Below, piece by piece: positions 2,798 to 49,272 of a stretch of DNA of 64,000 bases; the first letter of the stretch is position 1; each line of letters begins with the position of its first letter. The translations under genes were made by a program, and so were the position numbers. The stretch is from Patescibacteria group bacterium (GTDB taxonomy: Bacteria; Patescibacteriota; UBA1384; CAJBMM01), in assembly GCA_041660565.1 (NCBI GenBank), contig JBAZWC010000002.1, positions 287,484 through 351,483 of the forward strand. The letters are read 5' to 3'. Below the pieces are notes generated by a model. It was not told where the DNA came from and did not search any database. It worked only from the letters and a program-made list of their open reading frames with translations.

Positions 2798-2890
2798 GAA
2801 GGGATTTTTTCTCAGATTTCTCCCTCCGGGCGTAGTCTACGGGCGGAGCCAACGTGGTCGATTTGACAATCTCCCCGGGTCGAAATGACA
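2798..2890. repeat. Palindromic repeat family A, partial copy A1 (right half only)
   Basis: Contains TCTCAGATTTCTCC and the terminal GGGTCGAAATGACA. The left arm TGTCATTTCGAC is missing. Confidence 0.75.
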
Positions 2891-2911
2891 ATGGATTGAT
2901 GAGGTAAGTAT

Positions 2912-3568
2912 ATGTTATACGTTGTAGCAACCCCAATTGGAAATTTAGAGGATATCACAGATAGAGCTAGACGAATCTTGACGTCGGTAAGCTATATTGC
3001 GTGTGAAGACCCGAATCACAGCCGGATATTATTACAAAAAATTGGGAGTGTAGCCAAAACTATTGCTTTGAATGCTCATTCAAAATCTCCTAAAGTTGAT
3101 CAAGTAATTTCTTTGCTGCTGGCCGGAAATGACGTGGCTTACATTACTGACGCGGGTACGCCGGGTATTTCTGATCCGGGTGGGATTTTGGTTGAGGCTG
3201 CTCACAATAAAGAGATTGAGGTTTGTCCAATCCCGGGGCCATCGGCAGTGGCTTGCGCGTTATCGGTTTGCGGGTTCTGTGCTGATCAATTTATTTTTTA
3301 TGGCTACATCCCCAAGAAAAAAGGTCGTCAGACATTTTGGCTAAAATTGCAAAACCAAAAAATAACCGCTGTGATGTTTGAATCTCCAGACCGAATTGCC
3401 AAGACATTGGCCGAAATTCGTGCTACAATTAAGCCTGATAGGCGGGTGTGTATTTGCCGCGAATTAACCAAACAGTTTGAACAAATATGGCGGGGCACTA
3501 TCGCGCAAATTGAATCCGCTAAAATTATGGCAAAAGGGGAATTTGTGATCGTTTTGGAAGGTGACTAA
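2912..3568 (+). CDS. rsmI: 16S rRNA 2'-O-methyltransferase RsmI (tetrapyrrole-methylase fold)
   Basis: MLYVVATPIGNLEDIT N-terminus, typical RsmI length, and it follows rsmA. Confidence 0.9.
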   Translation: MLYVVATPIGNLEDITDRARRILTSVSYIACEDPNHSRILLQKIGSVAKTIALNAHSKSPKVDQVISLLLAGNDVAYITDAGTPGISDPGGILVEAAHNKEIEVCPIPGPSAVACALSVCGFCADQFIFYGYIPKKKGRQTFWLKLQNQKITAVMFESPDRIAKTLAEIRATIKPDRRVCICRELTKQFEQIWRGTIAQIESAKIMAKGEFVIVLEGD

Positions 3569-4623
3569 TGTTAAATAATTTCTTAAATAAACCGAATTAT
3601 AATTTATCGCCTAAAATATTGGCGGCGATCGCCAAGATAGAGCGGGCACAGGGAATCATTGACGCATCGCCGTTGGTGCCAACTTTTGAGCGAGATTTGC
3701 AATACGAAGCAATGTTGGCCACAATTCATGCGTCCACGCATATTGAGGGCAATGTTTTGGGTCAAGGCGCGGTAGAGCGCATTCTAAAAGGCGAAATCGT
3801 AACCGCTCGGCAGCGCGACATCCAAGAGGTAGTGAACTATCGCAATGTTATCGAATATGTTGGTAAAGTTTTTCGCAATACCAAGCAGCCGTTTACTGAT
3901 GTAATGATTCGTGAGTTTCATCGCGTTTTAATGCGCGATCTACTGCCCGAAGAACAGTTAGGCCAGTATCGCATTGTCCAAAACTATATTGTTGATGCCC
4001 GAACCGGCAAAACCATTTATACCCCGCCTCCAGCCAGAGACGTGCCAAAGCTAATGTTGGCGCTAACCGACTGGATAGTAGGGCAGAGCCCAGGCAGTTG
4101 TCATCCGGTCATTAAAGCGGCCTTGGCGCACTTTTTGGTAGAGGCAGTGCATCCGTTTGTAGATGGCAACGGCCGAGTTGGCCGTGTAGTGGCGATGTTT
4201 CTGCTTTACCGTGACGGCTACGATACGCGGCGATTGTTTTCGCTAGAAGATTATTACGATCAAGATCCCAAACAGTACTACCAGTCTTTGCGCTCGGTTT
4301 TGACTGCGCGGGCAGACGCCACAGAGTGGGTAGAGTATTTTGTAACCGGATTTGCAGTGCAGATTGATCAGATTTCGCAAAAAATCAGAGCGTACCTGGA
4401 CGGCGAGAAAAATCGCGATAAATTTGTAAAACAAGAGTTAAACAAGCGCCAGTTTGATGCTGTGCGTTGGCTGCAACATCACAAATCGGTGACGGCACTA
4501 GAATATGCCGAGCATTTTAAGGTTTCAAAACGCACTGCTAACTACGATCTTTCAGAGTTGGTGGGTAAAAAAATGGTTCTCCAAGAGGGCGAATCCCGTT
4601 CCTCGCGGTTTAAGCTAGCATAG
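3568..4623 (+). CDS. fic: Fic-family AMPylase (class II, N-terminal inhibitory helix) with C-terminal winged-helix
   Basis: Canonical Fic motif HPFVDGNGRVGR. The N-terminal STHIEGN matches the (S/T)xxxE(G/N) inhibitory motif. The start overlaps the rsmI stop (TAATG). Confidence 0.85.
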   Translation: MLNNFLNKPNYNLSPKILAAIAKIERAQGIIDASPLVPTFERDLQYEAMLATIHASTHIEGNVLGQGAVERILKGEIVTARQRDIQEVVNYRNVIEYVGKVFRNTKQPFTDVMIREFHRVLMRDLLPEEQLGQYRIVQNYIVDARTGKTIYTPPPARDVPKLMLALTDWIVGQSPGSCHPVIKAALAHFLVEAVHPFVDGNGRVGRVVAMFLLYRDGYDTRRLFSLEDYYDQDPKQYYQSLRSVLTARADATEWVEYFVTGFAVQIDQISQKIRAYLDGEKNRDKFVKQELNKRQFDAVRWLQHHKSVTALEYAEHFKVSKRTANYDLSELVGKKMVLQEGESRSSRFKLA

Positions 4624-4646
4624 AGTTTAGGAAAATATCACGACTG

Positions 4647-4745
4647 GTGTAGGGGCGGACTCATACTTGTCCTCCGTAGCCTTCTTGACTTTCCGTAGCT
4701 TTAGCGTAGGAGGTGGCGAAGGGGGATGTCCGCCCGTTTGGGGTG
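4647..4745. repeat. Palindromic repeat family C, long variant C1
   Basis: GTAGGGGCGGACTCATA..[~60-bp insert]..ATGTCCGCCCGTTTGG. Core hairpin GGGCGGAC/GTCCGCCC. Confidence 0.8.
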
Positions 4746-4852
4746 ATTTAATCGACAATAACCAGTAAAAGTGATATTATGATTCCGAAACAATAGCTGT
4801 CTTGGCTAATCGCTGTCGACGTAACGAGAACACCTGAAAGGAGAAACAGGTC

Positions 4853-5263
4853 ATGCTCGGTAAAGTCGGGTACATAACGGTAGCGATGGTTACCATTCTT
4901 CTCGGGATATTGTGCCTAATCATTCGAGACGATGGCCCACTGTTCGACGATCGTTCCGCGACGTTGGTGGCGCAGATCGATGCCGCCGACATGTCGGATT
5001 GTATCTCTCTGGTTGGTGCAGACACATCGGTGCTGACGAAGTCTCGGACGATGGTGGTGGTGTCGGTGCCGTTTGGGAATGCCAGTAGCCCGCCACTTTT
5101 CCAGAATACGTCGAAAAGCGCGACGACTGTGCGCTGGTTTCTGACCGGGGAGGAGAGAATACCGCTCAGTCTGACCACACAGGTCAAGGCCGGAACGTCC
5201 TATATCTCGGCTGAGCCGATCGATCTCGGCCACGGAAAGATGCGACTAAGGGTCTCGCTATGA
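4853..5263 (+). CDS. Hypothetical membrane-anchored protein encoded on GC-rich micro-island I1
   Basis: Strong RBS AAAGGAG 7 nt upstream, an N-terminal hydrophobic helix, and an intrinsic terminator immediately downstream. GC content is visibly above the backbone. Confidence 0.6.
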   Translation: MLGKVGYITVAMVTILLGILCLIIRDDGPLFDDRSATLVAQIDAADMSDCISLVGADTSVLTKSRTMVVVSVPFGNASSPPLFQNTSKSATTVRWFLTGEERIPLSLTTQVKAGTSYISAEPIDLGHGKMRLRVSL

Positions 5264-5273
5264 CGGCGGGCGT

Positions 5274-5313
5274 GGGGTCGGATGACAAGAGTTGTCCGAC
5301 CCCGTTAATTTTT
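5274..5313 (+). terminator. Intrinsic terminator of island I1
   Basis: Hairpin GGGGTCGGATGACAAGAGTTGTCCGACCCC followed by TTAATTTTTT. Confidence 0.65.
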
Positions 5314-5315
5314 TA

Positions 5316-5348
5316 TATAGATTCTGGGTCAAGCCCGGGATGACAATC
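5316..5348. repeat. Palindromic repeat family B, copy B1
   Basis: TATAGATTCTGGGTCAAGCCCGGGATGACA, near-identical to B2 at 40413. Confidence 0.8.
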
Positions 5349-5389
5349 TATCCTAATCACCATATCTTTGCTATATTTAGGGTGGAGAT

Positions 5390-6886
5390 ATGATGAAAAA
5401 GTTTTTTATCACCACCCCAATTTATTACGTTAATGATGTGCCGCACCTTGGGCACCTTTACACCACTTTAGCGGGTGATATTTTGGCGCGCCATTATCGT
5501 TTAACGGGGCGCGAGGTTTATTTTTTAACCGGCACCGATGAACATGGCTCCAAAATCGCCGAGGCAGCCGAAAAACATAATCAATCACCACAGGCCTTTG
5601 TAGATAACATTTCAGAGCAGTTTAAGCAGGTGTGGCAAAAGTACGACATCACTTTTGATCGATTTATTCGCACTACCGAAGAAGAGCACGTTAAAGTGGT
5701 CCAACAATTTCTGACCGATTTGCAGGCTCGTGGATATATTTATAAGGGCGAGTATTCCGGTTTGTATTGCCGTGGTTGCGAGGAGTACAAAAAAACATCA
5801 GATTTGGTTGATGGGCTTTGCCCGGTGCACCAGCGCGCTCCCGAATCTTTGGCTGAGCCGGCCTATTTTTTCAAATTGTCCGCTTTCGCCGATCAGATTT
5901 CTAGTTTAATCGATTCGCGTCAGTTGGAAATTCAGCCGGAGTCACGCCGCAACGAAGTACTATCATTCTTATCTAGCGGTTTAGAAGATGTGGCCATTTC
6001 GCGCCAAAACGTCGAATGGGGCATCCCGCTGCCTTGGGATCAGTCTCATACTATTTACGTGTGGATTGACGCCTTAATTAACTATTATACCGCGGGTCTT
6101 AAAGTAGACTGTTGGCCGGCAGACTGGCATTTAATGTCTAAAGACATTTTGCGATTTCACTGCGTTATTTGGCCGGCAATGCTGCTGGCGCTTGAGTTAG
6201 ACTTGCCAAAATCAATTTTCATTCACGGCTATTTTACGGTTGATGGTCAAAAGATGAGTAAGAGTTTAGGCAACGTGGTTAACCCTCTCGAAATGCTGCA
6301 GAAATATGATCGTGATGTAATTCGGGTCTTCCTTTTCAAATCGTTTCCGTTTGGTGCCGATGGTGATTTTTCGTGGGAGTTACTTGATCGATTTTATAAC
6401 GGCCAGTTGGCTAACGAGTTGGGCAATTTGGTACAGCGCGTGTTGGTGATGGCGGACAAATATTGTGACGGGATAGTGCCAAAGGGTGGCGGGTCGGTTT
6501 TGTCTGAGTTGACGCTGGATTTTGTTCAAAATACCCGCAAAGACATCGAAAAATTAGCTTTTGGCGATGCCCTGAATCATATTTTTAGTTTAATTCAGTT
6601 GGCCAATCGTCATATTGATAATATTAAATTATGGGATAAATCGAACGAACAAGCATTCATCAACCAAGGCATCGCGGAGTTGATCGAATTAATTAGGCAT
6701 CTTTCAATTGCGCTTTTGCCGATTATGCCCGATACCGCCCACAAAATTGCGCATTCACTTAATTTTGATCTTAAAAACAGTTATACTAAAGATGAATACG
6801 AAACAATAATAAGGTGGGGAAACTATCTTGAAGGGCGCAAGATTGTGGTGCCTGAGGTGCTGTTTCCACGAAGAGGAGAAAGTTGA
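5390..6886 (+). CDS. metG: Methionine--tRNA ligase (short form lacking C-terminal extension)
   Basis: Class I HIGH motif PHLGHLYT and a KMSKS motif. Length is 498 aa. Confidence 0.9.
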   Translation: MMKKFFITTPIYYVNDVPHLGHLYTTLAGDILARHYRLTGREVYFLTGTDEHGSKIAEAAEKHNQSPQAFVDNISEQFKQVWQKYDITFDRFIRTTEEEHVKVVQQFLTDLQARGYIYKGEYSGLYCRGCEEYKKTSDLVDGLCPVHQRAPESLAEPAYFFKLSAFADQISSLIDSRQLEIQPESRRNEVLSFLSSGLEDVAISRQNVEWGIPLPWDQSHTIYVWIDALINYYTAGLKVDCWPADWHLMSKDILRFHCVIWPAMLLALELDLPKSIFIHGYFTVDGQKMSKSLGNVVNPLEMLQKYDRDVIRVFLFKSFPFGADGDFSWELLDRFYNGQLANELGNLVQRVLVMADKYCDGIVPKGGGSVLSELTLDFVQNTRKDIEKLAFGDALNHIFSLIQLANRHIDNIKLWDKSNEQAFINQGIAELIELIRHLSIALLPIMPDTAHKIAHSLNFDLKNSYTKDEYETIIRWGNYLEGRKIVVPEVLFPRRGES

Positions 6887-8480: not shown

Positions 8481-8506
8481 CAATACATCGATGGACGAGG
8501 TATAAC

Positions 8507-8543
8507 GAAAATTTTAAATTTTAAATTTTTAATTTTAAAAATT
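8507..8543. repeat. AT-rich repeat family F (F2)
   Basis: GAAAATTTTAAATTTTAAATTTTTAATTTTAAAAATT, about 30 nt near-identical to F8 at 38296. Confidence 0.7.
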
Positions 8544-8795
8544 ATGAATAAATATTTAACAAAACAATCTGCGGTTAACCAAATAGAAATGGTTCTGGAC
8601 CAAATCCGGCCGGCGTTACAAAATCATGGTGGAAACGTCGAAGTGGTTGGATTTGACAATGGAGTGGTGAAGGTAAAATTGACCGGGCATTGTCACGATT
8701 GTCTTATTTCGACCGTAACGCTCAAACTAGGAATCGAACGTGCTTTATGCGCCAATCTACCAAATTTGGTGAAAAAAGTAATTGAGGTAAAATGA
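8544..8795 (+). CDS. NifU/Nfu-like Fe-S cluster scaffold domain protein
   Basis: Nfu-type CxxC motif GHCHDC. Length is 83 aa. Confidence 0.75.
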   Translation: MNKYLTKQSAVNQIEMVLDQIRPALQNHGGNVEVVGFDNGVVKVKLTGHCHDCLISTVTLKLGIERALCANLPNLVKKVIEVK

Positions 8796-9619: not shown

Positions 9620-9630
9620 ATTTTATGAGC

Positions 9631-9755
9631 TGTCATTTCGACTCCTCGAGCGTTGTCTCGAGGGTGGAGAAATCTTTCAAAAAGACGGGAATGGATTCTT
9701 TCTTGAGATTTCTCCGACACAGTCGATCTGCGGCTCTCCTAGGGTCGAAATGACA
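9631..9755. repeat. Palindromic repeat family A, full copy A2
   Basis: TGTCATTTCGACTCCTCG..GGAGAAATCT..AGATTTCTCC..GGGTCGAAATGACA. The terminal ATG of the repeat is the mnmA start codon. Confidence 0.85.
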
Positions 9756-10823: not shown

Positions 10824-10840
10824 GCAATAAAATTTCTTGT

Positions 10841-12235: not shown

Positions 12236-12243
12236 ATAAAGTT

Positions 12244-12272
12244 GACCCCGGCGCGCCTAAGCGGTCGGGGTC
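12244..12272. terminator. Bidirectional hairpin between convergent genes
   Basis: GACCCCGGCGCGCCTAAGCGGTCGGGGTC. Confidence 0.5.
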
Positions 12273-12709: not shown

Positions 12710-12849
12710 ACCTCCCAGAGATGTTCTAGCAAGACACGGTCTTGCTTGATTTGGATGATAGCACAAACTTCGCTTTCCGTCATTAGTTCTCTGATTCCCT
12801 TTACATCCATTTTTTTTATTGTTACCATTATTTATGAAAGTGAGGAACA

Positions 12850-13303: not shown

Positions 13304-13364
13304 TATAAACTGATTTTCAATATCGTATTGGCGGAACTTTGTGTCCGCCTTTATGATATTAACA

Positions 13365-13412
13365 AAATCTCAAATCCAAATTTTTAATTTTTAAAATTGT
13401 AATTTAGAATTT
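13365..13412. repeat. AT-rich repeat family F (F3)
   Basis: aaatccaaatttttaatttttaaaattgtaatttagaattt. Confidence 0.5.
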
Positions 13413-13423
13413 CGCCTCGTATG

Positions 13424-13434
13424 TGCTATAAATA
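13424..13434 (+). promoter_or_regulatory. Extended -10 promoter TGTGCTATAAAT upstream of recG
   Basis: Same TGTGCTATAA context as at 841 and 19908. Confidence 0.4.
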
Positions 13435-15536: not shown

Positions 15537-15570
15537 GTGTAGGGGCGGACTCATATGTCCGCCCTCTGGC
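15537..15570. repeat. Palindromic repeat family C, copy C2
   Basis: GTGTAGGGGCGGACTCATATGTCCGCCC. Confidence 0.85.
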
Positions 15571-17013: not shown

Positions 17014-17118
17014 GGGGGATTTGGGGGTTTAGGGTGATTGGCTCCAGCCCGTAGGGCTTACGCCCGGAGGGGAGATCCTTGGGTTCCCCCAATGTCTCTA
17101 ATCACCCTAATTCACCTA
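17014..17118. repeat. Palindromic repeat family E, copy E1
   Basis: AGGGTGATTGGCTCCAGCCCGTAGGGCTTACGCCCGGAGG..CTAATCACCCT. Shares the GGCTCCGCCCGTAGG module with copies at 47275, 52496 and 57820. Confidence 0.8.
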
Positions 17119-17986: not shown

Positions 17987-18004
17987 TGTTTTTTTGATGA
18001 TGTG

Positions 18005-18104
18005 CTCCTCACCCGGCCTACGGCCACCCTCTCCTCAGGGAGGAGAGGGGATCCCCTTCTCCTCGTTTTTGAGGAGAAGGTGCCTGTCAAGGCGGATGAG
18101 GAGG
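18005..18104. repeat. Palindromic repeat family D, copy D2
   Basis: Near-identical to D1: CTCCTCACCCGGCCTACGGCCACCCTCTCCTCAGGGAGGAGAGGGG..CCCTTCTCCTC..GAGGAGAAGGTGCC..GGCGGATGAGGAGG. Confidence 0.85.
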
Positions 18105-18113
18105 GAGTCGATC

Positions 18114-19927: not shown

Positions 19928-20801
19928 GACTATGAAACAAAAAGTCAAACAAATTATCGTGCTCGCGGGGCCAACTGCTAGTGGTAAAACCGATCTGGCT
20001 GCTGATTTGATCAAAAAATATCCGCTCGAAATAATTTCGGCTGATTCGCGACAGGTTTATCGTGGGCTGGATATTGGTAGTGGCAAAGATAAAACCGTGC
20101 CACAGTTCTTAATTGATGTGGTTAATCCGGAGAACGGATTTACTGTGGCGGATTTCAAGAAACTAGCCGAAGAAAAAATTGAACAAATCTGGCAAAGAGG
20201 GAACACGCCCCTAATTGTCGGCGGCACCGGCTTTTACATTGAGGCATTGATGTTTGATCAAACCACAAACCAAACGCCGCCAAATAAGTCGATCAGACAA
20301 AAACTCGAGCCGCTTTCCGGTGCAGAGCTATTAGAAATAATCGCGCGAGTTGACGCGATGACCGCTAGCAAAATCGATGTCAATAATCGCCGACGTTTAA
20401 TTCGCGCAGCGGAAATTATCTCGGCAACAAAAAAGCCGATTGCCCCGGTTTCGCATCAGTTGCGCACCGACGCTCGGGTTAGCTGCTTCGTGCTTGATGT
20501 ACCGCGTGAGGAGCTGTATAAGAGAATCGATAAACGAGTAGATGATCGGTTGAAGATCGGAATGATCGAAGAAGTTGAGCATTTAATCTTGGCCGGAGTC
20601 TCAAAAGAGTGGTTAGTTTCACTCGGGCTTGAATATCGCGCCATCACTCGATTCCTATCAGGTGAGGTTGGGCGCGACGAAATGGTGAAACAGTTAAAAT
20701 ATGACACGCACGCCTTTGCCAGACGGCAAATATCATATTTTAAGAGATGGAAATTCGCCGAAGCACTAAGCAAAAAAAGAATTTTAAATTTTAAATTTTA
20801 A
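19926..20801 (+). CDS. miaA: tRNA dimethylallyltransferase
   Basis: P-loop AGPTASGKT and DSRQVYRGLDIGSGK. The start is ATG 19926 or ATG 19932; the ORF-track start at 19893 is unlikely. Confidence 0.88.
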   Translation: MTMKQKVKQIIVLAGPTASGKTDLAADLIKKYPLEIISADSRQVYRGLDIGSGKDKTVPQFLIDVVNPENGFTVADFKKLAEEKIEQIWQRGNTPLIVGGTGFYIEALMFDQTTNQTPPNKSIRQKLEPLSGAELLEIIARVDAMTASKIDVNNRRRLIRAAEIISATKKPIAPVSHQLRTDARVSCFVLDVPREELYKRIDKRVDDRLKIGMIEEVEHLILAGVSKEWLVSLGLEYRAITRFLSGEVGRDEMVKQLKYDTHAFARRQISYFKRWKFAEALSKKRILNFKF

Positions 20802-20828
20802 ATTTTCAAAACTTGGAATTTAATTAAT
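20776..20828. repeat. AT-rich repeat family F (F4), overlapping the miaA 3' end
   Basis: gaattttaaattttaaattttaaattttcaaaacttggaatttaatt. It encodes the miaA C-terminus ..KRILNFKF. Confidence 0.6.
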
Positions 20829-20829
20829 C

Positions 20830-21954: not shown

Positions 21955-21990
21955 ATAGACTGGATTCCCGCCTTCGCGGGAATGACTACC
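21955..21990. repeat. Palindromic repeat family B (variant stem), copy B4, inside the atp operon
   Basis: CATAGACTGGATTCCCGCCTTCGCGGGAATGACTAC. Stem TTCCCGC/GCGGGAA with compensatory changes relative to B1-B3. Confidence 0.8.
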
Positions 21991-28749: not shown

Positions 28750-30288
28750 ATGGCGATATCACGCGTAAATTCGGTGGTAATTCAGGGGCTAGATGGTATC
28801 AGCATCATCGTCGAAGTTGATCTTGGCTTAGGTCTGCCTAAATTTAGCATTGTCGGTTTGCCCGATAAAGCGGTAGATGAAGCAAAAGAACGTACTAAAT
28901 CTGCACTCAAAAATTCAAACATCCCATTTCCGCAACATTTGGTGACGGTTAATTTGGCGCCAGCCGATGTTAAGAAGTCCGGTACCGGTTACGATCTGCC
29001 GATTGCTTTGGGGATCGCCGTAGGATTAGAACAAGTGGAGCAATCCGCACTAGAAAACGCTGGGTTTATCGGTGAATTGTCTTTAAGTGGTGATATTAAG
29101 CCGGTTTCGGGCATTTTGCCGGCCACCATGCATGTGCGTGACTTGGGTTGGAAATCGCTTTATGTGCCTTCTGCAAACGGGGCAGAGGCGGCCATTATTG
29201 ATGGTATTGATATTTATCCGGTGGAAAGTCTACGGCAATTAATTTTACATTTGCGCGGTGAAAAGCTAATCAAACCACTACCCCAAACCGAGTGGCAAGG
29301 GCAAGTGGACAAAGCAGTTTATACCGATATGTCATCCATTCGCGGGCAAAATCAGGCCAAGCGATCATTAGAAATTGCTGCGTCTGGTGGTCATAACGTG
29401 TTGATGAGCGGGCCTCCGGGAAGTGGCAAAACCATGCTGGCCAAAGCGTTTGCTGGCATTTTGCCTACCATGACTAAAAACGAAGTGTTTGAAGTGACCA
29501 AAATTTACAGTGTGGCTGGTTTGCTAACCGCCGACGAGCCGATTATGTTACGCCGACCTTTTCGTTCCCCGCACCACACCAGTAGCACTATTTCTTTGAT
29601 TGGCGGAGGGCAATGGCCCAAGCCGGGGGAGATAAGCCTTGCCCATCGAGGTGTGCTGTTTTTAGATGAATTTCCCGAGTTTCCCAGAAGTGCTTTGGAA
29701 AGTTTGCGCCAGCCACTGGAAGATGGCACCGTTTCGATATCTCGAGCTAACGGCTCGGTGCATTTTCCGGCTAAGTTTATTTTGTTGGCAACTCAAAATC
29801 CTTGCCCGTGTGGTTATTTGCACGACACCATCAAGCGTTGCCGTTGCTCGCAAACCGAGATAAAGCGTTATCACCAACGCTTGTCTGGCCCGCTTTTGGA
29901 TCGCATTGACTTGCATATTACCGTGCCACGAGTTGAAGTGGATGATTTAAGTAATGCCGGCAACGGAGAGACGACCGAAAGTATCCGTCTGCGCGTTGAA
30001 AAAGCGCGTAAAATTCAGTCGGTGCGTTTTGAAGGCACAAAGATAGTCTCGAACGCGGAAATGGGAGTTAAAATGATCGATCAGTTTTGTGTGCTCGATG
30101 TAGCGTCTCGAAATTTATTAAACAAGGCGGTGGAAAGGTACGGTTTATCGGCTCGGTCATATCATCGTATCATTAAGGTTGCCAGAACCATTGCTGATCT
30201 GTCTGGAGAGGAAAACATCCAACAAAACCACATTGCTGAAAGTCTGCAATTTAGAGAAAGCTCTCAGGATGAGGAAAATATTAGATAA
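28750..30288 (+). CDS. comM: YifB/ComM-family Mg-chelatase-like AAA+ ATPase
   Basis: Walker A SGPPGSGKTML and Walker B VLFLDEF. N-terminal Lon-like ChlI domain, 512 aa. Confidence 0.88.
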   Translation: MAISRVNSVVIQGLDGISIIVEVDLGLGLPKFSIVGLPDKAVDEAKERTKSALKNSNIPFPQHLVTVNLAPADVKKSGTGYDLPIALGIAVGLEQVEQSALENAGFIGELSLSGDIKPVSGILPATMHVRDLGWKSLYVPSANGAEAAIIDGIDIYPVESLRQLILHLRGEKLIKPLPQTEWQGQVDKAVYTDMSSIRGQNQAKRSLEIAASGGHNVLMSGPPGSGKTMLAKAFAGILPTMTKNEVFEVTKIYSVAGLLTADEPIMLRRPFRSPHHTSSTISLIGGGQWPKPGEISLAHRGVLFLDEFPEFPRSALESLRQPLEDGTVSISRANGSVHFPAKFILLATQNPCPCGYLHDTIKRCRCSQTEIKRYHQRLSGPLLDRIDLHITVPRVEVDDLSNAGNGETTESIRLRVEKARKIQSVRFEGTKIVSNAEMGVKMIDQFCVLDVASRNLLNKAVERYGLSARSYHRIIKVARTIADLSGEENIQQNHIAESLQFRESSQDEENIR

Positions 30289-30372
30289 ATTTTTAATTTT
30301 TAATTTTTAATTTCAAATGAAAGGTTGCCAATTTTAAATGACTAAATAAAGAACCATTTAAAATTTAATCAT
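30287..30372. repeat. AT-rich repeat family F (F5)
   Basis: aaatttttaatttttaatttttaatttcaaatg..ccaattttaaatg..atttaaaatttaatc. Confidence 0.6.
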
Positions 30373-30407: not shown

Positions 30408-30487
30408 TATAGACTGGATTCCCGCTCTTCGAGCCTGAGCCTGAGGGCTTATCCCTCAGAGTCGAATGACCTGCGCGGGAATGACAG
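30408..30487. repeat. Palindromic repeat family B, copy B5, with a nested palindromic insert
   Basis: TATAGACTGGATTCCCGC[TCTTCGAGCCTGAGCCTGAGGGCTTATCCCTCAGAGTCGAATGACCT]GCGCGGGAATGACAG. Confidence 0.8.
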
Positions 30488-31441: not shown

Positions 31442-32923
31442 ATGATTAAGTTATCAATCAATCCCGGGAGAATGACGTTAATTGAGAGGCTGGGGTCGGT
31501 TTGGCGTCGGCTAATCCGATTACCAAAAGTGCTTCGGCCAAAAGAAAAACGGGCGATTTTATTCTTAGCTCTAGTGATGCTTGGTGCGTTGCTGTGGAAC
31601 TTAATCAGTAGTCACGGTTCTAACCCGGCCTTTGGTGGTACTTATGTGGAAGGGTTTGTGGGAGAGGCAAAATATATCAATCCGGTGCTGGCCAGCTCAG
31701 ATGCTGACACCAGTATGGTTAAACTTATTTATTCCGGATTAACCAGAATCGATGAAAATGGTGATATCCAGCCAGATTTGGCCTCGTCTTGGGAGATAAC
31801 CGATGGCGGCAAGACTTACATTTTCCATTTGCGCAATGACGTAGAGTGGCATGATGGGTCGCCGTTCACTGCCAAAGACGTGGTATATACTATCGGGTTG
31901 ATCCAAGACCCGGCAGTCCAAAGTTGGCATTTCGACGCGTGGAACAACATTTCTGCAAGCGCGCCCGATGACTACACGGTAAAGTTTAGCTTGCCCGAGG
32001 TTACATCTACCTTCATTTGGAACACCACTATTGGTATAATGCCAGCAAAAATTGGCAGCTCCGATATTAATCAAAGTTTTGTGGGCACCGGGCCGTATAA
32101 ATATTCTAAGGTAAGAGTTAAAAACAATAAGATCGAATCCATCGTGTTAGTCCGGAATACCCATATCTATCATGTTTCGGCGCCGTACATCGATGCAGTC
32201 GAAATTTGGCTTTTCCCATCATTAGCTGAAGCAAAATCTGCTTTGCAAGATCAGAAGATACAGGCGTTGGCCAAGCCGGAAGTAAATGATAGCCGTGCCA
32301 ATAGTTATCAGCTAATTTTGAATCAAAAAATCACTTTGTTCATTAACAGCCAGAGCGCTTTGTTATCCGACCTAAATGTGCGGCAGCAGCTGCTAAGTGG
32401 TACGGTTACAGCAAGCATTACCAAGCCGCTTGTGGTGGTGGTTGACACTGCACACGCTAATGATTCGGTAATAACCGAAACCATCAAGCAGTGGGAAAAA
32501 GAGGGGATCACAATTACGTCGCAAAACTTGTCACTAACCGCTATCAAAGCGTCCATATTACCATCGCGAAAATATGATGTGCTTATTTTGGCGGTTGAAG
32601 ACGGCCCGCAGTTTGATTATTATGCTTATTGGCATTCGTCGCAAATGAGTGGGCTCGGGTTAAACTTTTCGAGCGTGAAAAATAATGATCTGGACAAATT
32701 ATTGTCAGATCAGCGCAAGGCACTAACCATTGCCGATCGCAGTACCTTAACTGACCAGATTGAAAAGATGCTAGATGGTTTGGCAGTGCGAAAAGTGTTG
32801 TCTCAGGCAAAATTTGAATACGCAATCAGCAAAAATGTGCATGTTGTGCCGACAAAGGTTGGTAACAGTGGAGCCGATCGTTTCAATAGTTTTGAGAAAT
32901 GGTACATTAAAACCAGGCGGTAA
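31442..32923 (+). CDS. ABC transporter substrate-binding protein, family 5 (oligopeptide/dipeptide type)
   Basis: N-terminal anchor, about 490 aa, SBP_bac_5-like pattern. No cognate permease or ATPase genes are adjacent, so it is an orphan. Confidence 0.75.
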   Translation: MIKLSINPGRMTLIERLGSVWRRLIRLPKVLRPKEKRAILFLALVMLGALLWNLISSHGSNPAFGGTYVEGFVGEAKYINPVLASSDADTSMVKLIYSGLTRIDENGDIQPDLASSWEITDGGKTYIFHLRNDVEWHDGSPFTAKDVVYTIGLIQDPAVQSWHFDAWNNISASAPDDYTVKFSLPEVTSTFIWNTTIGIMPAKIGSSDINQSFVGTGPYKYSKVRVKNNKIESIVLVRNTHIYHVSAPYIDAVEIWLFPSLAEAKSALQDQKIQALAKPEVNDSRANSYQLILNQKITLFINSQSALLSDLNVRQQLLSGTVTASITKPLVVVVDTAHANDSVITETIKQWEKEGITITSQNLSLTAIKASILPSRKYDVLILAVEDGPQFDYYAYWHSSQMSGLGLNFSSVKNNDLDKLLSDQRKALTIADRSTLTDQIEKMLDGLAVRKVLSQAKFEYAISKNVHVVPTKVGNSGADRFNSFEKWYIKTRR

Positions 32924-32930
32924 ACCGCCA

Positions 32931-33013
32931 ATTTTCTATTTTTATTTTAAAATTTTAAAACATTTGGAAATTCATTTAAAATTTATAATTTATACTTTAA
33001 AATTTAAGTGCTT
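32931..33013. repeat. AT-rich repeat family F (F7) upstream of tRNA-Leu
   Basis: tttattttaaaattttaaaacatttggaaattcatttaaaatttataatttatactttaaaatttaagtgcttgggg. Preceded by the hairpin CCAGGCGGTAAACCGCC at the SBP gene stop. Confidence 0.6.
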
Positions 33014-35343: not shown

Positions 35344-35466
35344 TGTCATTTCGACCCTCGGAGAGCGTCAGCTCGACGGTGTTGGAGAAATCTTAAAAAG
35401 AATCCCTTCCAGTCTTTCTTGAGATCTCTCCAACCTCTCGACAAAGCTCGAGGGGTCGAGATGACA
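35344..35466. repeat. Palindromic repeat family A, full copy A3
   Basis: TGTCATTTCGACCCTCGG..GGAGAAATCTTAAAAAG..AGATCTCTCC..GAGGGGTCGAGATGACA. Confidence 0.85.
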
Positions 35467-35524
35467 ATTATCGGATCATAAAAATTATAAACAAAAATCA
35501 AACAAGAAATAGTTTAGGAGAACA

Positions 35525-37277: not shown

Positions 37278-37313
37278 CCGTAGGGGTGGACTCATATGTC
37301 CGCCCGTTTGTGG
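37278..37313. repeat. Palindromic repeat family C, copy C3
   Basis: CCGTAGGGGTGGACTCATATGTCCGCCCGTTTGTGG. Confidence 0.85.
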
Positions 37314-38888: not shown

Positions 38889-38895
38889 TAAATAA

Positions 38896-38980
38896 GCCCG
38901 GGTGGTGAAATTGGCATACACGCGACACTTAAAATGTCGTTTCGAAAGAATTGCGGGTTCGAGTCCCGCCCTGGGCACCA
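38896..38980 (+). tRNA. tRNA-Leu (anticodon TAA), long variable arm
   Basis: Acceptor GCCCGGG/CCTGGGC, anticodon loop CTTAAAA, T-arm GGTTCGAGTCC, 3' ACCA. Confidence 0.82.
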
Positions 38981-38995
38981 AAAATTGCAGCATAC

Positions 38996-39030
38996 CCTCG
39001 TCATTCCGGGCTTGACCCGGAATCTATGTA
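38996..39030. repeat. Palindromic repeat family B, copy B3 (inverted orientation)
   Basis: CCTCGTCATTCCGGGCTTGACCCGGAATCTATGTA. Confidence 0.8.
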
Positions 39031-39041
39031 AAAAGAAAAAA

Positions 39042-39386
39042 ATGAATAAATATACCGGCACTATCGTTGAAGAGTCACTAGACGACAATCGGCTTATAAA
39101 TGAATTTAATATCTTAAATACTCGTATTTCCGGGGCAGAAAATCCTGCCGACCGCTGGCACTTATATAAAGTCGATGCAACTAAAGAGCAGCTTGAGGAG
39201 CTATCAAAACATATTAAACCGCAAAAGTGGTATGCTCATTTTTGGTGTGACGACGAGATGATAGTAGTTTTCCGAGATAAAATGTTTGATCAAAAAGTTA
39301 ATGATAAAAATACTTGGGAGCCAGCAATTAGATACGGGCTCTCTCACGGTATCCCAATAAAACAGCTTGATTTTGTTGTTGAGTGA
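39042..39386 (+). CDS. Hypothetical protein
   Basis: ATG 39042 after repeat B3. The ORF-track start at 38934 would overlap the tRNA and is rejected. Confidence 0.55.
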   Translation: MNKYTGTIVEESLDDNRLINEFNILNTRISGAENPADRWHLYKVDATKEQLEELSKHIKPQKWYAHFWCDDEMIVVFRDKMFDQKVNDKNTWEPAIRYGLSHGIPIKQLDFVVE

Positions 39387-39393
39387 AAAATAA

Positions 39394-39978
39394 ATGATTG
39401 AAGTTGAGAAGAAGTTTAAATTAAGCGGGCAAGACATTGAACGGCTAACCAGGGATGCCGAGTTTTTGAAAGAGCGGACTTTTACTGACATTTATTTTGA
39501 CGATGAAAAATATTCTCTAACCTCGAACGATAAATGGTTGCGTGCGCGAGATGGCCTTTATGAACTAAAATTGCCAATGCATGCGGGGGTGGATAGAAAA
39601 GCAGACCAGTACGATGAAATTGAAGATGAACAAAAGATTCGCGAAGTGCTAAATATCCCCACCGACCAGAAAATTGACGAAATTTATGCACCATTTTGCA
39701 ATGTCACCACTACGCGCAAAAAATATAAAAAAGATCAATTTATTATTGATTTAGACGATGTCGATTACGGTGATTTTAAGTATTCGCTTGGTGAGATTGA
39801 ACTATTAGTAAATAATCAGTCAGATATTGAAAAAGCAATTGCGGAAATTATGGATTTTGCGAATAAGTATCAATTGTCCGTCGCAATGGTTCGTGGAAAA
39901 GTAATTGAATATCTAAAACAAGTTAAACCGGAACATTATCAAGCTCTAATTAAAGCCAAAGTAGTGAAAGATTTCTGA
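39394..39978 (+). CDS. CYTH-domain protein (CyaB-like/triphosphatase fold)
   Basis: N-terminal EVEKKF motif, plus YFDD and LRAR..YELKLP motifs. Confidence 0.75.
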   Translation: MIEVEKKFKLSGQDIERLTRDAEFLKERTFTDIYFDDEKYSLTSNDKWLRARDGLYELKLPMHAGVDRKADQYDEIEDEQKIREVLNIPTDQKIDEIYAPFCNVTTTRKKYKKDQFIIDLDDVDYGDFKYSLGEIELLVNNQSDIEKAIAEIMDFANKYQLSVAMVRGKVIEYLKQVKPEHYQALIKAKVVKDF

Positions 39979-39985
39979 ATAGAGT

Positions 39986-40013
39986 GAATGCCCGTCCGAA
40001 GACGGGCATTTTG
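39986..40013 (+). terminator. Intrinsic terminator
   Basis: AATGCCCGTCCGAAGACGGGCATTTTGG. Confidence 0.7.
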
Positions 40014-40036
40014 GTGTGGCGGGTAGGCGCACTGGC

Positions 40037-40306
40037 CTACTCAGCGTTCTTGTTGGCAGGTACGATGCCAGAGCCGTCATAAGGCTCGATCTCGATGACG
40101 CCTGCAACGAATGCCTCGTCAGCCTTGGCGACGTTCCTGACAAATGTCCATTCACCGTCCGGGCCTTCGTGGAAACGCCCGATGATCGTACCAGTGTCTC
40201 GAACGCGATGGGGCAGCTTTCGTTCTGGCCCGTGGCCGTCCTGCATTCCAACGAGCGCATCAGTTTCCAACATGGCCGCAATTCCGGACAGACCCTCGTT
40301 CTCCAT
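40037..40306 (-). CDS. Hypothetical 89-aa protein on GC-rich micro-island I4
   Basis: RBS AAAGGAG 8 nt before the ATG (MENEGLSG..). GC content is visibly high. No motifs recognised. Confidence 0.55.
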   Translation of the reverse strand: MENEGLSGIAAMLETDALVGMQDGHGPERKLPHRVRDTGTIIGRFHEGPDGEWTFVRNVAKADEAFVAGVIEIEPYDGSGIVPANKNAE

Positions 40307-40412
40307 TGCTCGACTCCTTTGGTATCCGAATCGATGAAAAGATCGACAGGAGTGATTGCTTATCCTGCTATGCCGTGATCATATAATTATTTGTCTTGTG
40401 ATTCAAGCTATT

Positions 40413-40446
40413 TATATAGATTCCGGGTCGAGCCCGGAATGACAGC
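40413..40446. repeat. Palindromic repeat family B, copy B2
   Basis: TATATAGATTCCGGGTCGAGCCCGGAATGACAGC. Confidence 0.85.
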
Positions 40447-40471
40447 GGAACGAATATGTTATAATGACGGC

Positions 40472-41041: not shown

Positions 41042-41050
41042 GAGACCAAT

Positions 41051-42799: not shown

Positions 42800-42861
42800 A
42801 CATTTCAAATTGATATTGGTCGACTTTATGTAGTACAATGATATAAACGAGGGGATTGTTT

Positions 42862-44127: not shown

Positions 44128-44128
44128 T

Positions 44129-45886: not shown

Positions 45887-45888
45887 CC

Positions 45889-46293
45889 GTGATTTTAGCG
45901 ATTGATTTTGGCTTAGTGCGAATTGGTTTGGCAATGGGCGAGCAGATTGCATCGGAATATCGAACTATTTTGAATAATGATGGCGCAATATCTGAAATTC
46001 TAAAGATTATTGGTGATGAGCAAGTTGACACTGTGGTTATTGGTCGTCCGGTACGTAGCCGAGGCGAAAAAGGCAGTATCGATGAACACATCGATTTTTT
46101 TGTCCAAGCTATTAAATTAGCGGTGCCACATATTACAATTTGTGAATCAAATGAGGCGTTTACTACGTCTGCGGCGCTCTCAGATTTGAAGGAAAAAGGG
46201 TTGTCTATAGAAGCGAGTAAGAAAAGAGTAGATCAATACGCCGCCAAATTATTGTTGCAACAGTATATTGATGAACAAATGAAAAAGGCGTAA
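45889..46293 (+). CDS. ruvX: YqgF/RuvX-like putative Holliday-junction resolvase
   Basis: ILAIDFGLVRIGLAM N-terminus of RNase H-like fold. GTG start. Confidence 0.75.
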   Translation: MILAIDFGLVRIGLAMGEQIASEYRTILNNDGAISEILKIIGDEQVDTVVIGRPVRSRGEKGSIDEHIDFFVQAIKLAVPHITICESNEAFTTSAALSDLKEKGLSIEASKKRVDQYAAKLLLQQYIDEQMKKA

Positions 46294-46295
46294 GG

Positions 46296-47258
46296 ATGAA
46301 ACTTTGGGTTAAGATTAGTTTATTGATAATCGGAATTATTATCGCGATTGGTTTGTCGGGGTATCTTTGGTTTATTAATCAAATTAATGCCAAAACAACC
46401 GCTTCGGTTACTACATTCGAGATTACATCCGGAGAAAGCTCGGCAGATGTTATTAGTCGATTATACTCCAGCGGTATTATTAAGTCCGAAACGGTGGCGC
46501 TGATTTATCAAAAAATATATCGCCCTAAGTTGTTGGCGGGTACGTTTTCGATCCCTCAAACTTATTCCGTTAAATCTTTATTTAATGTTCTTGGCTCTCC
46601 GGAGTTAGAGCAGAAGAAGTTGACTGTTAAAGAAGGATGGGCCAAGGAGCAAATTGCCGATAAGATTACGGAATTCGGGCTGTCTTCATTTACATTTCTG
46701 AATTTGGCAAAAAATTCAGAAGGTAAATTGTTCCCCGACACTTATTTTATTGGTAAGAAAACGACCGAAGAAAGCCTGGTTACGGCGATGACCGATCAGT
46801 ACAGCAAAGAAACGGCCAGTTTGAATGTGACAAAAAATCAACTTATTTTGGCATCAATTGTCGAACGAGAAGCGTTGAACGATGCGGATAGAGGCATTAT
46901 TGCCGGGATTTACTCAAATCGATTGAAAATTAATATGTCAATGGGCGCGGACCCAACGGTGCAATACGCTAAAAATATCGATCTTGGATTAGCGCCGGTT
47001 AAGGATGGGATAACGCAGTGGTGGGCGCCAATTACGGCGGCGGATTATAAATCGGCCAACTCATTGTATAACACTTACCTACATGTTGGGTTGCCTCCAG
47101 CGCCAATTTGCAATCCCGGGATCGCCAGTATTAATGCAGCCCAAAATCCAACACCGTCGGACGACTATTATTTCTACTACGATGCAAAAAGTGTTTTAAT
47201 TACCGCTAAAACACTTGCCGAACGAAACGCGCTGCTTCGAACATATCCAATTCATTAG
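46296..47258 (+). CDS. mltG: Endolytic murein transglycosylase MltG (YceG-like)
   Basis: N-terminal TM helix and YceG-like domain (..GLPPAPICNPG..). Confidence 0.8.
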   Translation: MKLWVKISLLIIGIIIAIGLSGYLWFINQINAKTTASVTTFEITSGESSADVISRLYSSGIIKSETVALIYQKIYRPKLLAGTFSIPQTYSVKSLFNVLGSPELEQKKLTVKEGWAKEQIADKITEFGLSSFTFLNLAKNSEGKLFPDTYFIGKKTTEESLVTAMTDQYSKETASLNVTKNQLILASIVEREALNDADRGIIAGIYSNRLKINMSMGADPTVQYAKNIDLGLAPVKDGITQWWAPITAADYKSANSLYNTYLHVGLPPAPICNPGIASINAAQNPTPSDDYYFYYDAKSVLITAKTLAERNALLRTYPIH

Positions 47259-47412
47259 GTGATTAGCTGATTAGGCTCCGCCCGTAGGGCTACTCCTCTC
47301 CGAGCCGTAGGCTCTACGAGCTGGAGGCCGGAGGGTGATTAGGGGTTCCATAGGGGCGATACCTCGTTTCACTTCGGAAACCGAAGGTTAACACGAATCG
47401 CCCGTTTCGGCG
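47256..47412. repeat. Palindromic repeat family E, copy E2 (long composite)
   Basis: GGTGATTAGCTGATTAGGCTCCGCCCGTAGGGCT..GGAGGGTGATTAGGGG. Carries additional hairpins ending CGAATCGCCCGTTTCGGCG. Confidence 0.8.
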
Positions 47413-47487
47413 TAGTTGAAGATTATCTATCGAAGTAATATATTGATGTTGTCAGTCTGAATGACTCGTATCTCAGGGGAGAAGCGC

Positions 47488-47691
47488 ATGGAAGGGAATC
47501 GTGGCCTCGCGTCGTTGGAGGATCTGGTACGGTCTATCGGCACTGATCCAATCGATCCAATGTTCGCCACGTCGAGCGACAAGGAACGATTCGATGGGTC
47601 TTTGCGGACGGTGCTGGAACCGCTCTGGGCAGAGGACGACGTTGCTCGCGCCAAGTCGGTCGAATCTGGCCGAAGTTACATCGTATATTGA
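47488..47691 (+). CDS. Hypothetical 67-aa protein, gene 1 of GC-rich micro-island I5
   Basis: RBS AGGGGAGAAG before the ATG. GC-rich. Confidence 0.5.
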   Translation: MEGNRGLASLEDLVRSIGTDPIDPMFATSSDKERFDGSLRTVLEPLWAEDDVARAKSVESGRSYIVY

Positions 47692-47715
47692 GCTACTGTC
47701 ACGGAGGTTTGTGAG

Positions 47716-47922
47716 ATGTATGACGAGGAGCTGACCCCGATAGAGAAGCTTGTCTTGTCTAACTCGGGTGGAGTGCCTGCTGCCCATCCCGTACTGGCAA
47801 CTCGGGCAGACATCGATGCGTTTGAGGGGAGAATGCGGATTGCAACAGAGCTGACTCTCAAGGCAGACCGAAGAGCCATGGATGAGTCATGGCAGGCTGC
47901 GCGCTTCAAGCTGATCGACTGA
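47716..47922 (+). CDS. Hypothetical 68-aa protein, gene 2 of GC-rich micro-island I5
   Basis: RBS GGAGG 9 nt before the ATG. Followed by an intrinsic terminator. Confidence 0.5.
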   Translation: MYDEELTPIEKLVLSNSGGVPAAHPVLATRADIDAFEGRMRIATELTLKADRRAMDESWQAARFKLID

Positions 47923-47936
47923 GTGTCGGGTGATAG

Positions 47937-47975
47937 GCCGGGTGGATGTTCCACTCCGGCCTTTCTCTTTTTAAT
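47937..47975 (+). terminator. Intrinsic terminator closing island I5
   Basis: GGCCGGGTGGATGTTCCACTCCGGCC followed by TTTCTCTTTTT. Confidence 0.65.
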
Positions 47976-48036
47976 ATTTTGATTTTGAATTTATTCCGTG
48001 CTTGGTGCTTAGAATTTAGTGCTTATTCAACCCGGC
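47963..48036. repeat. AT-rich repeat family F (F9) upstream of mreB
   Basis: tttttaatattttgattttgaatttattCCGTGCTTGGTGCTTagaatttagtgctt plus palindrome TTCAACCCGGCGGGTTGAA. Confidence 0.6.
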
Positions 48037-48091
48037 GGGTTGAATTAATCTGTCAGATTGATATAATCAGCGCCAGACGGAGATTTTTATT

Positions 48092-49138
48092 GTGGTCAAA
48101 ATAATTGACACCCTATTCAACTTTTTTTCCCAAGATATTGGCATCGATTTAGGTACGGCCAACACCTTGGTTTATGTACGCGGAAAAGGAGTGGTTATTC
48201 AAGAGCCGTCGGTTGTAGCCATCAACGAGCGCACTAAAAAAGTATTAGCCATTGGTAACGAAGCCAAGCGGATGGTAGGGCGTACCCCGTCACATATTGT
48301 GGCTGTTCGTCCACTTGTAGATGGGGTAATCTCTGATTTCGAGGTGACCGAGGCCATGCTTCGCTATTTTATTGATAAAGTAACTCAAGACAAATTTAAA
48401 TTATTATCCAGACCTAGGGTGGTAATTGGTATCCCGTATGGTGTAACCGAAGTTGAGCGTCGCGCTGTTGAAGAAGGAGCGCTGAATGCCGGTGCGCGGC
48501 AAGTTTTCTTAATTGAAGAGCCGGTCTCGGCGGCTATTGGGGCGCGTTTGCCAATTCACGAACCATCGGGCAATATGATCGTTGATATTGGTGGCGGTAC
48601 TACTGAGGTGGCTGTATTAAGTTTGGGAGGGATTGTTGCGTCCAGATCGCTTCGAGTGGCCGGCGATGAGCTGAACCAAGACATCATCCAATACGCTCGT
48701 GATCAATTTAATATCTTATTGGGCGAAAAAACCGCCGAAGATGTTAAAATTAATATTGGTAGTGCCTTCCCCCTGAATGAAAAATTGCAGACGCCAATGC
48801 GCGGGCGTGATTTGGTTAGCGGATTGCCTAAAGAAATTATGGTAAACGATGAACAGATTCGCGAAGCGATGAAGAAATCGATTAAAATTATTGTTGATAG
48901 TATTCGGATGACTATGGAAGAAACTCCACCGGAGTTGCTGGCAGATATAATGGAGCGAGGAATTATTTTGGCTGGCGGGGGTGCAATGTTGCGCGGGCTG
49001 GATAAGTTGATCGCTCAGGAAACCAGAACCATTGTGCATATTGCTGACGATCCGTTGACATGCGTTGTGCGAGGAACAGGGGTGGTGCTTGAAGATTTGG
49101 ATAATCTACGGGAAGTACTGTTACCGACCGTTAGATAA
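48092..49138 (+). CDS. mreB: Rod shape-determining protein MreB
   Basis: IGIDLGTANTLVYV, DIGGGTTEVAV, 348 aa. Extended -10 TGATATAAT at 48059. Confidence 0.92.
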   Translation: MVKIIDTLFNFFSQDIGIDLGTANTLVYVRGKGVVIQEPSVVAINERTKKVLAIGNEAKRMVGRTPSHIVAVRPLVDGVISDFEVTEAMLRYFIDKVTQDKFKLLSRPRVVIGIPYGVTEVERRAVEEGALNAGARQVFLIEEPVSAAIGARLPIHEPSGNMIVDIGGGTTEVAVLSLGGIVASRSLRVAGDELNQDIIQYARDQFNILLGEKTAEDVKINIGSAFPLNEKLQTPMRGRDLVSGLPKEIMVNDEQIREAMKKSIKIIVDSIRMTMEETPPELLADIMERGIILAGGGAMLRGLDKLIAQETRTIVHIADDPLTCVVRGTGVVLEDLDNLREVLLPTVR

Positions 49139-49148
49139 ACTGCTCGTA

Positions 49149-49272
49149 TTGTCATTTCGACTCCTCGACATTCGAGTCGAGGGTGGAGAAATCTCAAAAA
49201 AGACTGGAAGGGGTTTTATCTCAGATTTCTCCAACACAGTCGTGTTGACACACTCCTAGGGTCGAAATGACA
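49149..49272. repeat. Palindromic repeat family A, full copy A4
   Basis: TGTCATTTCGACTCCTCGACATTCGAGTCGAGGGTGGAGAAATCTC..AGATTTCTCC..CTAGGGTCGAAATGACA. Confidence 0.85.

Follow-up and report, generated by a model that had tools for sequence, protein, structure and literature searches.

Family A, a set of composite repeats in a 64-kb window of a Patescibacteria genome (contig JBAZWC010000002.1, positions 287,484 to 351,483; the window is this whole stretch), has its closest described counterparts in two bodies of work on short tagged hairpins. Di Nocera et al. (2013, BMC Genomics; PMC3733652) defined, from 5 phyla and mostly from alpha-Proteobacteria, a superfamily of REP (repetitive extragenic palindromic) sequences starting with a CGTC tag, often replaced by TGTC, carrying AT at stem positions 1-2, and closing with a short tail. 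These CGTC-tagged REPs mostly form dimers with the tags outside (HH dimers), either as homodimers or as heterodimers, around spacers of 20-100 bp with complementary ends; they have no known transposase and were reported without RAYT, the HUH tyrosine transposase tied to REPs (PMC3733652). Chenal et al. (2025, Nat Commun; PMC11893778) described single-domain GIY-YIG nucleases, named Ssn, that bind the NTS hairpin CGTCATTCCCGCGMAVGCGGGAATCYRG and its kin, the Ssn-related motifs (SRM), as single-stranded DNA (ssDNA) only, and that nick a few nucleotides 5' of the hairpin tag, as observed in Neisseria and Wolbachia. Cutting needs the three bases ahead of the stem and binding, in N. meningitidis, needs the C behind it, while the class as described comprises a single GIY-YIG domain of ~94 aa with catalytic Tyr/Tyr/Glu at about 6/17/64 (family cd10448) and genes that typically carry the motif on both sides (PMC11893778). 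The NTS/SRM repeats are the same repeats that Di Nocera et al. had already defined as CGTC-tagged REPs.

Family A is a lineage-specific, gene-less family of 123-125 bp composite repeats. We consider it probable that its members are HH dimers of a TGTC-tagged REP/Ssn-related motif and that they are the gene-less counterpart of cassettes in which two such hairpins face each other across an ssn gene; they may be moved via nicking by a cognate Ssn. This assignment draws on the modular structure of the half-units, on the genes found between related hairpins in other genomes, and on empty sites in relatives.

Results

Family A in the window

The window holds three full copies (A2, A3, and A4) and one fragment (A1), with coordinates given in Table 1. 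An earlier note, made from the sequence alone, had listed four copies at these places, and both the sequence and nhmmer agree, the fragment running from 2796 to 2890 and A4 starting at 49150. A profile built from the three full copies recovered A2, A4, and A3 at E values of 1e-39 to 1e-41 and A1 as a partial match (model positions 56-123, E 1e-10), with no further significant copy in the window. The 12-mer GTCGAAATGACA occurs at the element ends six times exactly and once with one mismatch, and A3 has one terminal mismatch (GTCGAGATGACA); allowing up to two mismatches, there are 22 matches in the window versus 6.6 expected, a count reached by 0 of 100 shuffles. A lone ATCGAAATGACA at 63432-63443 (+), beside other repeats, may be what is left of an element end, although its nhmmer match is not significant (E 8.9). 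The internal inverted repeat that the earlier note had seen as common to the copies is present in each of them as GGAGAAATCT/AGATTTCTCC, with the variant AGATCTCTCC in A3.

The full copies are 82-84% identical when A3 is reverse-complemented and 69-72% identical in the opposite orientation. The element is therefore polar, with A3 lying in the inverse orientation to its flanking genes. As already claimed, all copies are intergenic between same-strand genes, and NCBIfam annotation of the neighbors gives rsmA and rsmI, folD and mnmA, an unassigned 127-aa open reading frame (ORF) and rpsA, and mreB and mreC, all on the + strand. In the last of these intervals, A4 begins 11 nt past the mreB stop and ends 16 nt ahead of the mreC ATG at 49289, a start backed by an identical NCBI protein.

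Modularity of the half-units

Each full copy consists of two convergent units with their tags outside, i.e., an HH dimer, on either side of a conserved spacer of ~30 nt. The unit reads 5'-TGTC, ATYTC, GAC, a structured loop, GGA, GARAT, C, T-3'. In 7/7 half-units (six in the full copies plus the right half of A1), a TGTC tag precedes a stem beginning with AT, and a C directly follows that stem. We scanned 185,579 species genomes for the ends TGTCATYTCGAC...GTCGARATGACA spaced 85-115 nt apart and found the pair in at least 120 loci from many phyla, the hosts among the matches listed being Flavobacterium, Mucilaginibacter, Acidobacteriota, Chloroflexota, Clostridia, Gammaproteobacteria, Nitrospirota, Bifidobacterium, and many Patescibacteria. 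The interiors of these related elements are unlike Family A by BLAST. An inner motif, GGAGARATC...GATYTCTCC, which was not part of the search query, nevertheless occurs in nearly all matches listed.

Two variants, T/A and C/G, exist for the ends as well as for the inner motifs. Among 83 elements of the matches listed, the left end variant equals the left inner motif variant in 78 (Fisher, 5e-16) and the right end variant equals the right inner motif variant in 81 (Fisher, 1.5e-16), while the left and right ends are independent of each other (P = 0.79), as are the two inner motifs. Subtypes are mixed in 36/83 of these elements, i.e., they are heterodimers, and A3 is one such case in the window, with a TTT/AAA half beside 35344 and a CTC/GAG half beside 35466; A2 and A4 are homodimers. 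Covariation within halves and its absence between halves indicate that the unit is the half, TGTC-ATYTC...GARAT-CT. Judged from these variant patterns, the terminal and internal inverted repeats arise only from two units facing each other. The suggestion that the paired element ends act as functional inverted repeats is thus not upheld, the ends showing no covariation with one another. As for the terminal inverted repeats of the earlier note, their 12 nt are solid, whereas the quoted extension CCTCG...CGAGG is mostly a local side hairpin and does not pair end to end.

In other genomes, the termini can recur in tandem, two to three times over at a ~17-22 nt period, e.g., TGTCATTTCGACCGCGGCCCCC three times (Table 1), and such a duplication, in decayed form, seems to be visible in the side arms of Family A (GTCGNNNTGACA-N10-GTCGAAATGACA). 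A metagenome scan with the Family A right-half pattern returned 2 matches, neither of them a true Family A copy, and a scan of 2.9 million viral contigs returned 2 matches as well, indicating that phage carriage is not a feature of these elements.

A GIY-YIG gene between the hairpins

Clustering of the ORFs of the at least 120 loci revealed a single family that recurs across phyla beside the elements, a GIY-YIG protein of ~95 aa (PF01541). Its gene is present in at least 7 loci and lies between the left half and the right half in at least 4 of these. In an independent test, four GIY-YIG genes were picked by protein similarity and host-contig size, without regard to hairpins, and 4/4 are closely flanked by hairpins, a forward one on the upstream side and a reverse one on the downstream side, the hairpins being of the TYTCGAC type found in the window in 2/4 loci (Patescibacteria and Bipolaricaulota). 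PF01541 spans the whole of these proteins of 96-100 aa, the Y, Y, and E columns are conserved, and there are >8000 homologues of the same size. NCBIfam and PADLOC offered no specific family for them, and their PDB matches were distant UPF0213 proteins only. In a Patescibacteria genome, one locus (L127, 1284-4256) holds both a hairpin-flanked putative ssn cassette and, adjacent to it, a gene-less dimer between lexA and a Y-family polymerase (dinB-like) gene.

Filled and empty sites

The earlier note had pointed to a comparison of orthologous intergenic regions, and relatives proved to be empty at both folD|mnmA and mreB|mreC. Two relatives with 62-65% identical MnmA share with the window the gene order aminoacyl-tRNA synthetase, EamA, TatD, NifU, FolD, MnmA, fn3 protein, small ORF, and RecG; in both of them, folD and mnmA overlap by 1 nt (TAATG), whereas the window has a gap of 130 nt, of which 125 nt are the element. 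Likewise, the mreB-mreC spacer measures 11 and 26 nt in relatives with 47-52% identical MreC versus 150 nt in the window, i.e., the 123-nt element plus 27 nt that still carry a Shine-Dalgarno-like AAAGGA. These empty sites in syntenic relatives show that the copies are insertions, and since the three full copies also share their spacer (82-84% identity), the gene-less form itself has propagated. No target-site duplication was seen at A2, A3, or A4, nor in 94/127 elements among the matches listed, where the distribution equals that of permuted flanks; the sole flank bias in these 127 elements is a pyrimidine preference at position -1. The lack of a target-site duplication argues against a MITE (miniature inverted-repeat transposable element) of the DDE type.

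The mnmA start codon

The claim that the terminal ATGACA of A2 supplies the start codon of mnmA is supported by the ORF, by the position at which protein profiles begin, and by an identical NCBI protein. The MnmA profiles of NCBIfam begin at residues 9-11 of the window ORF, and the NCBI MnmA protein of 357 aa has the same start. There is no other in-frame start ahead of the conserved VCVAMSGG, and the next one would lose the VCVA strand; on this evidence from the reading frame, mnmA can retain its conserved N terminus only if translation starts at the ATG at 9750.

Exact excision of 9631-9755 would yield an in-frame ATG AGC AAT AAA and hence a protein beginning with MSNKKHSNQTVCVAMSGG as opposed to the present MTNKK..., and MnmA of relatives starts 2-6 residues ahead of VCVAMSGG. 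This suggests that A2 may have landed after codon 2 of mnmA and been tolerated since its end reads ATG ACA in frame. The probability of an in-frame ATG arising by chance in the short spacer left of A2 is about 5%, which makes a landing at codon 2 a reasonable deduction and not a proof.

Folding and RNA signals

The whole element folds strongly as DNA (z about -5, at -28 to -29 kcal/mol), and the RNAs of the copies form the long hairpins anticipated in the earlier note, at -51 to -59 kcal/mol (z -4.6 to -6.9). Both strands fold equally well, as expected of any palindrome. Thermodynamics thus favors the long hairpin while the comparative data favor half-units; we give more weight to the latter with respect to what is selected, both folds being physically possible. 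In the A2 RNA fold, the mnmA start codon is paired within the 12-bp outer stem, and folD ends 12 nt before the element, so that ribosomes terminating on folD may be needed to open the outer stem over the mnmA start.

Rfam at gathering thresholds found only tRNAs in the window and nothing relevant in four related loci, where the sole match, Flavo-1, lies elsewhere in one locus (L102). Promoter and terminator scans around three copies remained at chance level. At A3, the terminal ATGACA together with an AATTAT 16 nt downstream (35461-35488, +) forms a sigma-70-like -35/-10 pair facing rpsA; sigma-70-like matches in the A3 region are at chance level, and every element end carries this near-consensus -35 hexamer.

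Other repeats in the window

The window contains several other repeats (Table 1), the first three described here being further members of the CGTC/TGTC-tagged superfamily outside Family A. Just upstream of atpC lies a canonical, Neisseria-type NTS/dRS3 hairpin of the CGTC-1 REP kind, the only match to the SRM pattern in the window, with a DNA hairpin of -8.9 kcal/mol (z -5.7). In a second NTS-type stem, the loop is split by an insert of ~45 nt that begins GTCATTCGAC, giving the impression of a hairpin repeat lodged inside a second one. Two copies of a third hairpin type (CGTCATTCCGGGCTYGACCCGGAATCTA), paired with their tags outside, enclose 1.4 kb (39025-40418) with an ORF of 120 aa and one with a CYTH domain (39394-39978), right after a tRNA; this type also has a degenerate copy elsewhere. 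A GTAG-tagged REP-like family (CGTAGGGGCGGAC...GTCCGCCC) is present as well, indicating that the genome holds both the GTAG and the CGTC/TGTC superfamilies. We further observe a G+C-rich composite palindromic family (CCCTCTCCTC...GAGGAGAGGG, GGCGGATGAGGAG) in both orientations and a 27-32 nt palindrome family (CCCTCCGGGCGTA...TACGGGC.GGAGCC), one copy of which lies inside fragment A1, indicating that insertion of one small repeat family into another takes place in this genome. Lastly, a phased motif rich in AT (AATTTTAAATTTTAAATTTT) recurs where genes end and ahead of tRNA genes, and could be a promoter/UP-like or curved-DNA signal.

Table 1. Positions of the Family A copies and of other repeats in the window, and of related loci in other genomes
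Feature	Position	Strand	Context or remark
Fragment A1, spacer and right hairpin unit, left unit gone	2796-2890	+	Between rsmA and rsmI
Palindrome of 27 nt, CTCCGGGCGTAGTCTACGGGCGGAGCC	2824-2850		Nested in A1; resembles repeats at 17040-17071 and 57795-57826
ATG AGC, probable original first two mnmA codons	9625-9630	+	Directly left of A2
Copy A2, full dimer	9631-9755	+	Between folD (stop 9619) and mnmA; nhmmer profile and folds
A2 left unit	9631-9676	+	TTT/AAA subtype
A2 right unit	9705-9755	-	TTT/AAA subtype
mnmA start codon	9750-9752	+	Inside terminal ATGACA of A2; first start codon of ORF
Copy A3, full dimer, inverted	35344-35466	-	Upstream of rpsA; nhmmer profile
Copy A4, full dimer	49150-49272	+	mreB-mreC spacer; nhmmer profile
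A4 left unit	49150-49195	+	
A4 right unit	49222-49272	-	
Canonical NTS/dRS3-type CGTC-1 REP, AGTCATTCCCGCGAAGGCGGGAATCCAG	21960-21987	-	CCA tail; just upstream of atpC
NTS-type stem ATTCCCGC...GCGGGAAT	30417-30485	-	Loop split by ~45-nt insert
Third hairpin type, CGTCATTCCGGGCTTGACCCGGAATCTA, left member of pair	39000-39024	+	Tags outside
Third hairpin type, right member of pair	40419-40443	-	
Third hairpin type, degenerate copy	5310-5344		
GTAG-tagged REP-like family	13324-13349, 15538-15563, 37279-37304, 58299-58344, 61250-61281		
G+C-rich composite palindromic family	1863-1976, 17996-18107, 57645-57780, 63279-63360		Both orientations
Palindrome family, 27-32 nt	2824-2850, 17040-17071, 57795-57826		
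AT-rich phased motif	8499-8559, 13354-13414, 20769-20829, 30277-30337, 32919-32979, 38289-38349		Gene ends and before tRNA genes
Loci in other genomes with duplicated termini	L004 6888-7020; L032 4331-4441; L054 943-1066; L092 7787-7911; L106 3647-3791		

Discussion

With Family A read as paired target hairpins of an Ssn-type nuclease, a course of events can be proposed. In ssDNA, the 5' end of each strand would carry one hairpin in the correct orientation, so that nicks made by a cognate Ssn would fall just outside each Family A boundary, and copying or moving of the element would then be left to replication or repair by the host. The copies would also be cotranscribed with their flanking genes. 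Several points weigh against this assignment. In nearest-neighbor folding of single halves as DNA, the local ATYTC:GARAT helix is not predicted to be stable (-4 to -8 kcal/mol, with no significant z). The published SRM pattern HGTCWYN(0-2)YYVSBRHN(0-5)WNVSBRGN(0-2)RNCYNB fails to match the halves, whose stems lack the uninterrupted 8-9 bp and the 4-5 nt loops known from described CGTC REP families, and their tail is CT where that of the CGTC REPs is CCA. The within-half covariation rests essentially on two haplotypes, so shared descent of the subtypes explains part of it; it therefore speaks strongly for modularity and less strongly for base pairing as such. A GIY-YIG profile run against the six-frame translation found no GIY-YIG gene in the 64-kb window, and the GIY-YIG proteins of other loci are candidate members of the Ssn family (cd10448). 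Finally, transposition by Ssn through its nuclease alone is raised only as a hypothesis and not demonstrated in the work that described the enzyme (PMC11893778).

The MITE-like label of the earlier note is apt insofar as the elements are small, gene-less, present in several copies, bounded by 12-nt perfect terminal inverted repeats, and inserted relative to syntenic relatives. A classical MITE, i.e., a deletion derivative of a DDE-transposase insertion sequence (IS) whose terminal repeats serve cut-and-paste transposition, is nevertheless very unlikely in our view. Neither the window copies nor the 127 elements show a target-site duplication, ORF clustering of the at least 120 loci among the matches listed gave no recurrent transposase and no parent IS with the same ends, the only gene between the ends being that of the GIY-YIG protein, and the ends vary independently of each other and together with the inner motif of the same half, which is unexpected for terminal repeats that bind a transposase. 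A REPIN mobilized by RAYT would have the same general architecture, with two tagged hairpins in inverted orientation around a spacer, and GTAG-tagged REP-like repeats do occur in the window. This explanation is hardly credible, however, given that the Family A tag is TGTC and not GTAG, that CGTC-tagged REPs were reported without RAYT (PMC3733652), and that no RAYT-like ORF family recurred among the matches listed (at least 120 loci, by clustering only, with no dedicated HMM).

Another possibility is that Family A is primarily an RNA element, in which the cotranscribed hairpin is kept for its role as an RNase III site, a stabilizer, or a translational gate. All copies lie within same-strand operons, the RNA folds are strong, the mnmA start codon is buried in the outer stem, and RNA roles for REP dimers have also been suggested by Di Nocera et al. 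(PMC3733652). Yet A3 is inverted relative to transcription, the two strands fold equally, and the long-range pairs are not kept, with a C-A mismatch in the outer stem in 21/83 elements among the matches listed; neither Rfam nor the promoter and terminator scans gave a signal, and the host operons of relatives work without the element, as the empty sites show. We therefore regard a primary role as an RNA element as unlikely, and an effect on RNA is likely a side consequence and not the reason for the existence of the element.

If Family A indeed consists of Ssn-type hairpin dimers, the generic MITE label gives way to a specific assignment, namely to paired hairpins that are targeted by ssDNA nucleases of a class discovered only recently. 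The TYTCGAC subtype would then extend the Ssn-motif class to sequences that escape the published search pattern, and Patescibacteria would extend it to a phylum that goes unmentioned in the accessible part of the text of Chenal et al. The two clean comparisons of filled and empty sites indicate that such dimers do insert, which had only been hypothesized (PMC11893778), and the mnmA case offers an insertion apparently after codon 2 that was tolerated via the in-frame ATG of the element itself. Speculatively, Ssn-type hairpins near core operons could affect the recombination of incoming DNA in organisms thought to depend on uptake.

A broader proposal, which we hold tentatively and consider somewhat doubtful, is that gene-less SRM HH dimers form a REPIN-like non-autonomous class found in most bacterial phyla, the reduced Patescibacteria genomes among them, moved in trans by a nuclease-only GIY-YIG protein acting on ssDNA, with no transposase and no target duplication. 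Were this true, the filled and empty sites at folD|mnmA and mreB|mreC would be direct evidence of such mobility, and the core TGTCATYTCGAC/GGAGARATC, strikingly conserved, would be the signature of a single Ssn specificity that is exchanged widely.

With respect to described systems, Family A shares with the NTS/SRM repeats and Ssn the 5' (C/T)GTC tag, the AT-first stem, and the C after the stem, and the NTS/SRM system comprises hundreds of mostly intergenic copies and a GIY-YIG gene of 94-100 aa flanked by the motif on both sides; canonical NTS copies also share the window with Family A. It differs in its longer units of 43-51 nt, in which a closing A/T helix of 5 bp is followed by GA/AG mismatches and then a structured insert. 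The CGTC-tagged REPs are alike in tag, AT-first stem, short tail, and HH arrangement as homo- and heterodimers, and are set apart by the interrupted stems, long structured loops, and Patescibacteria host of Family A. In the accessible part of the text of Chenal et al. (PMC11893778), the terms MITE, REPIN, Correia, and Patescibacteria do not occur and "inverted" occurs once. A literature search for the Family A 12-mers gave no match, and 10-mers appeared in unrelated papers only.

Correia elements, which are MITEs of Neisseria, are cotranscribed intergenic inverted repeats of ~100-150 bp that can alter the expression of neighboring genes, and they carry terminal inverted repeats of 26 bp and duplicate a TA target. 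Family A bears them a general likeness, with no sequence similarity and no duplication. REPIN/RAYT systems differ from Family A in their GTAG tag and in an HUH tyrosine transposase that is able to cut and rejoin, whereas to our knowledge a GIY-YIG nuclease is known only to cut. They are likewise non-autonomous inverted doublets of tagged hairpins, with the enzyme gene lying between the same hairpins (Bertels and Rainey, 2011), and by analogy, the gene-less Family A may stand to the ssn cassette as the REPIN stands to the RAYT gene.

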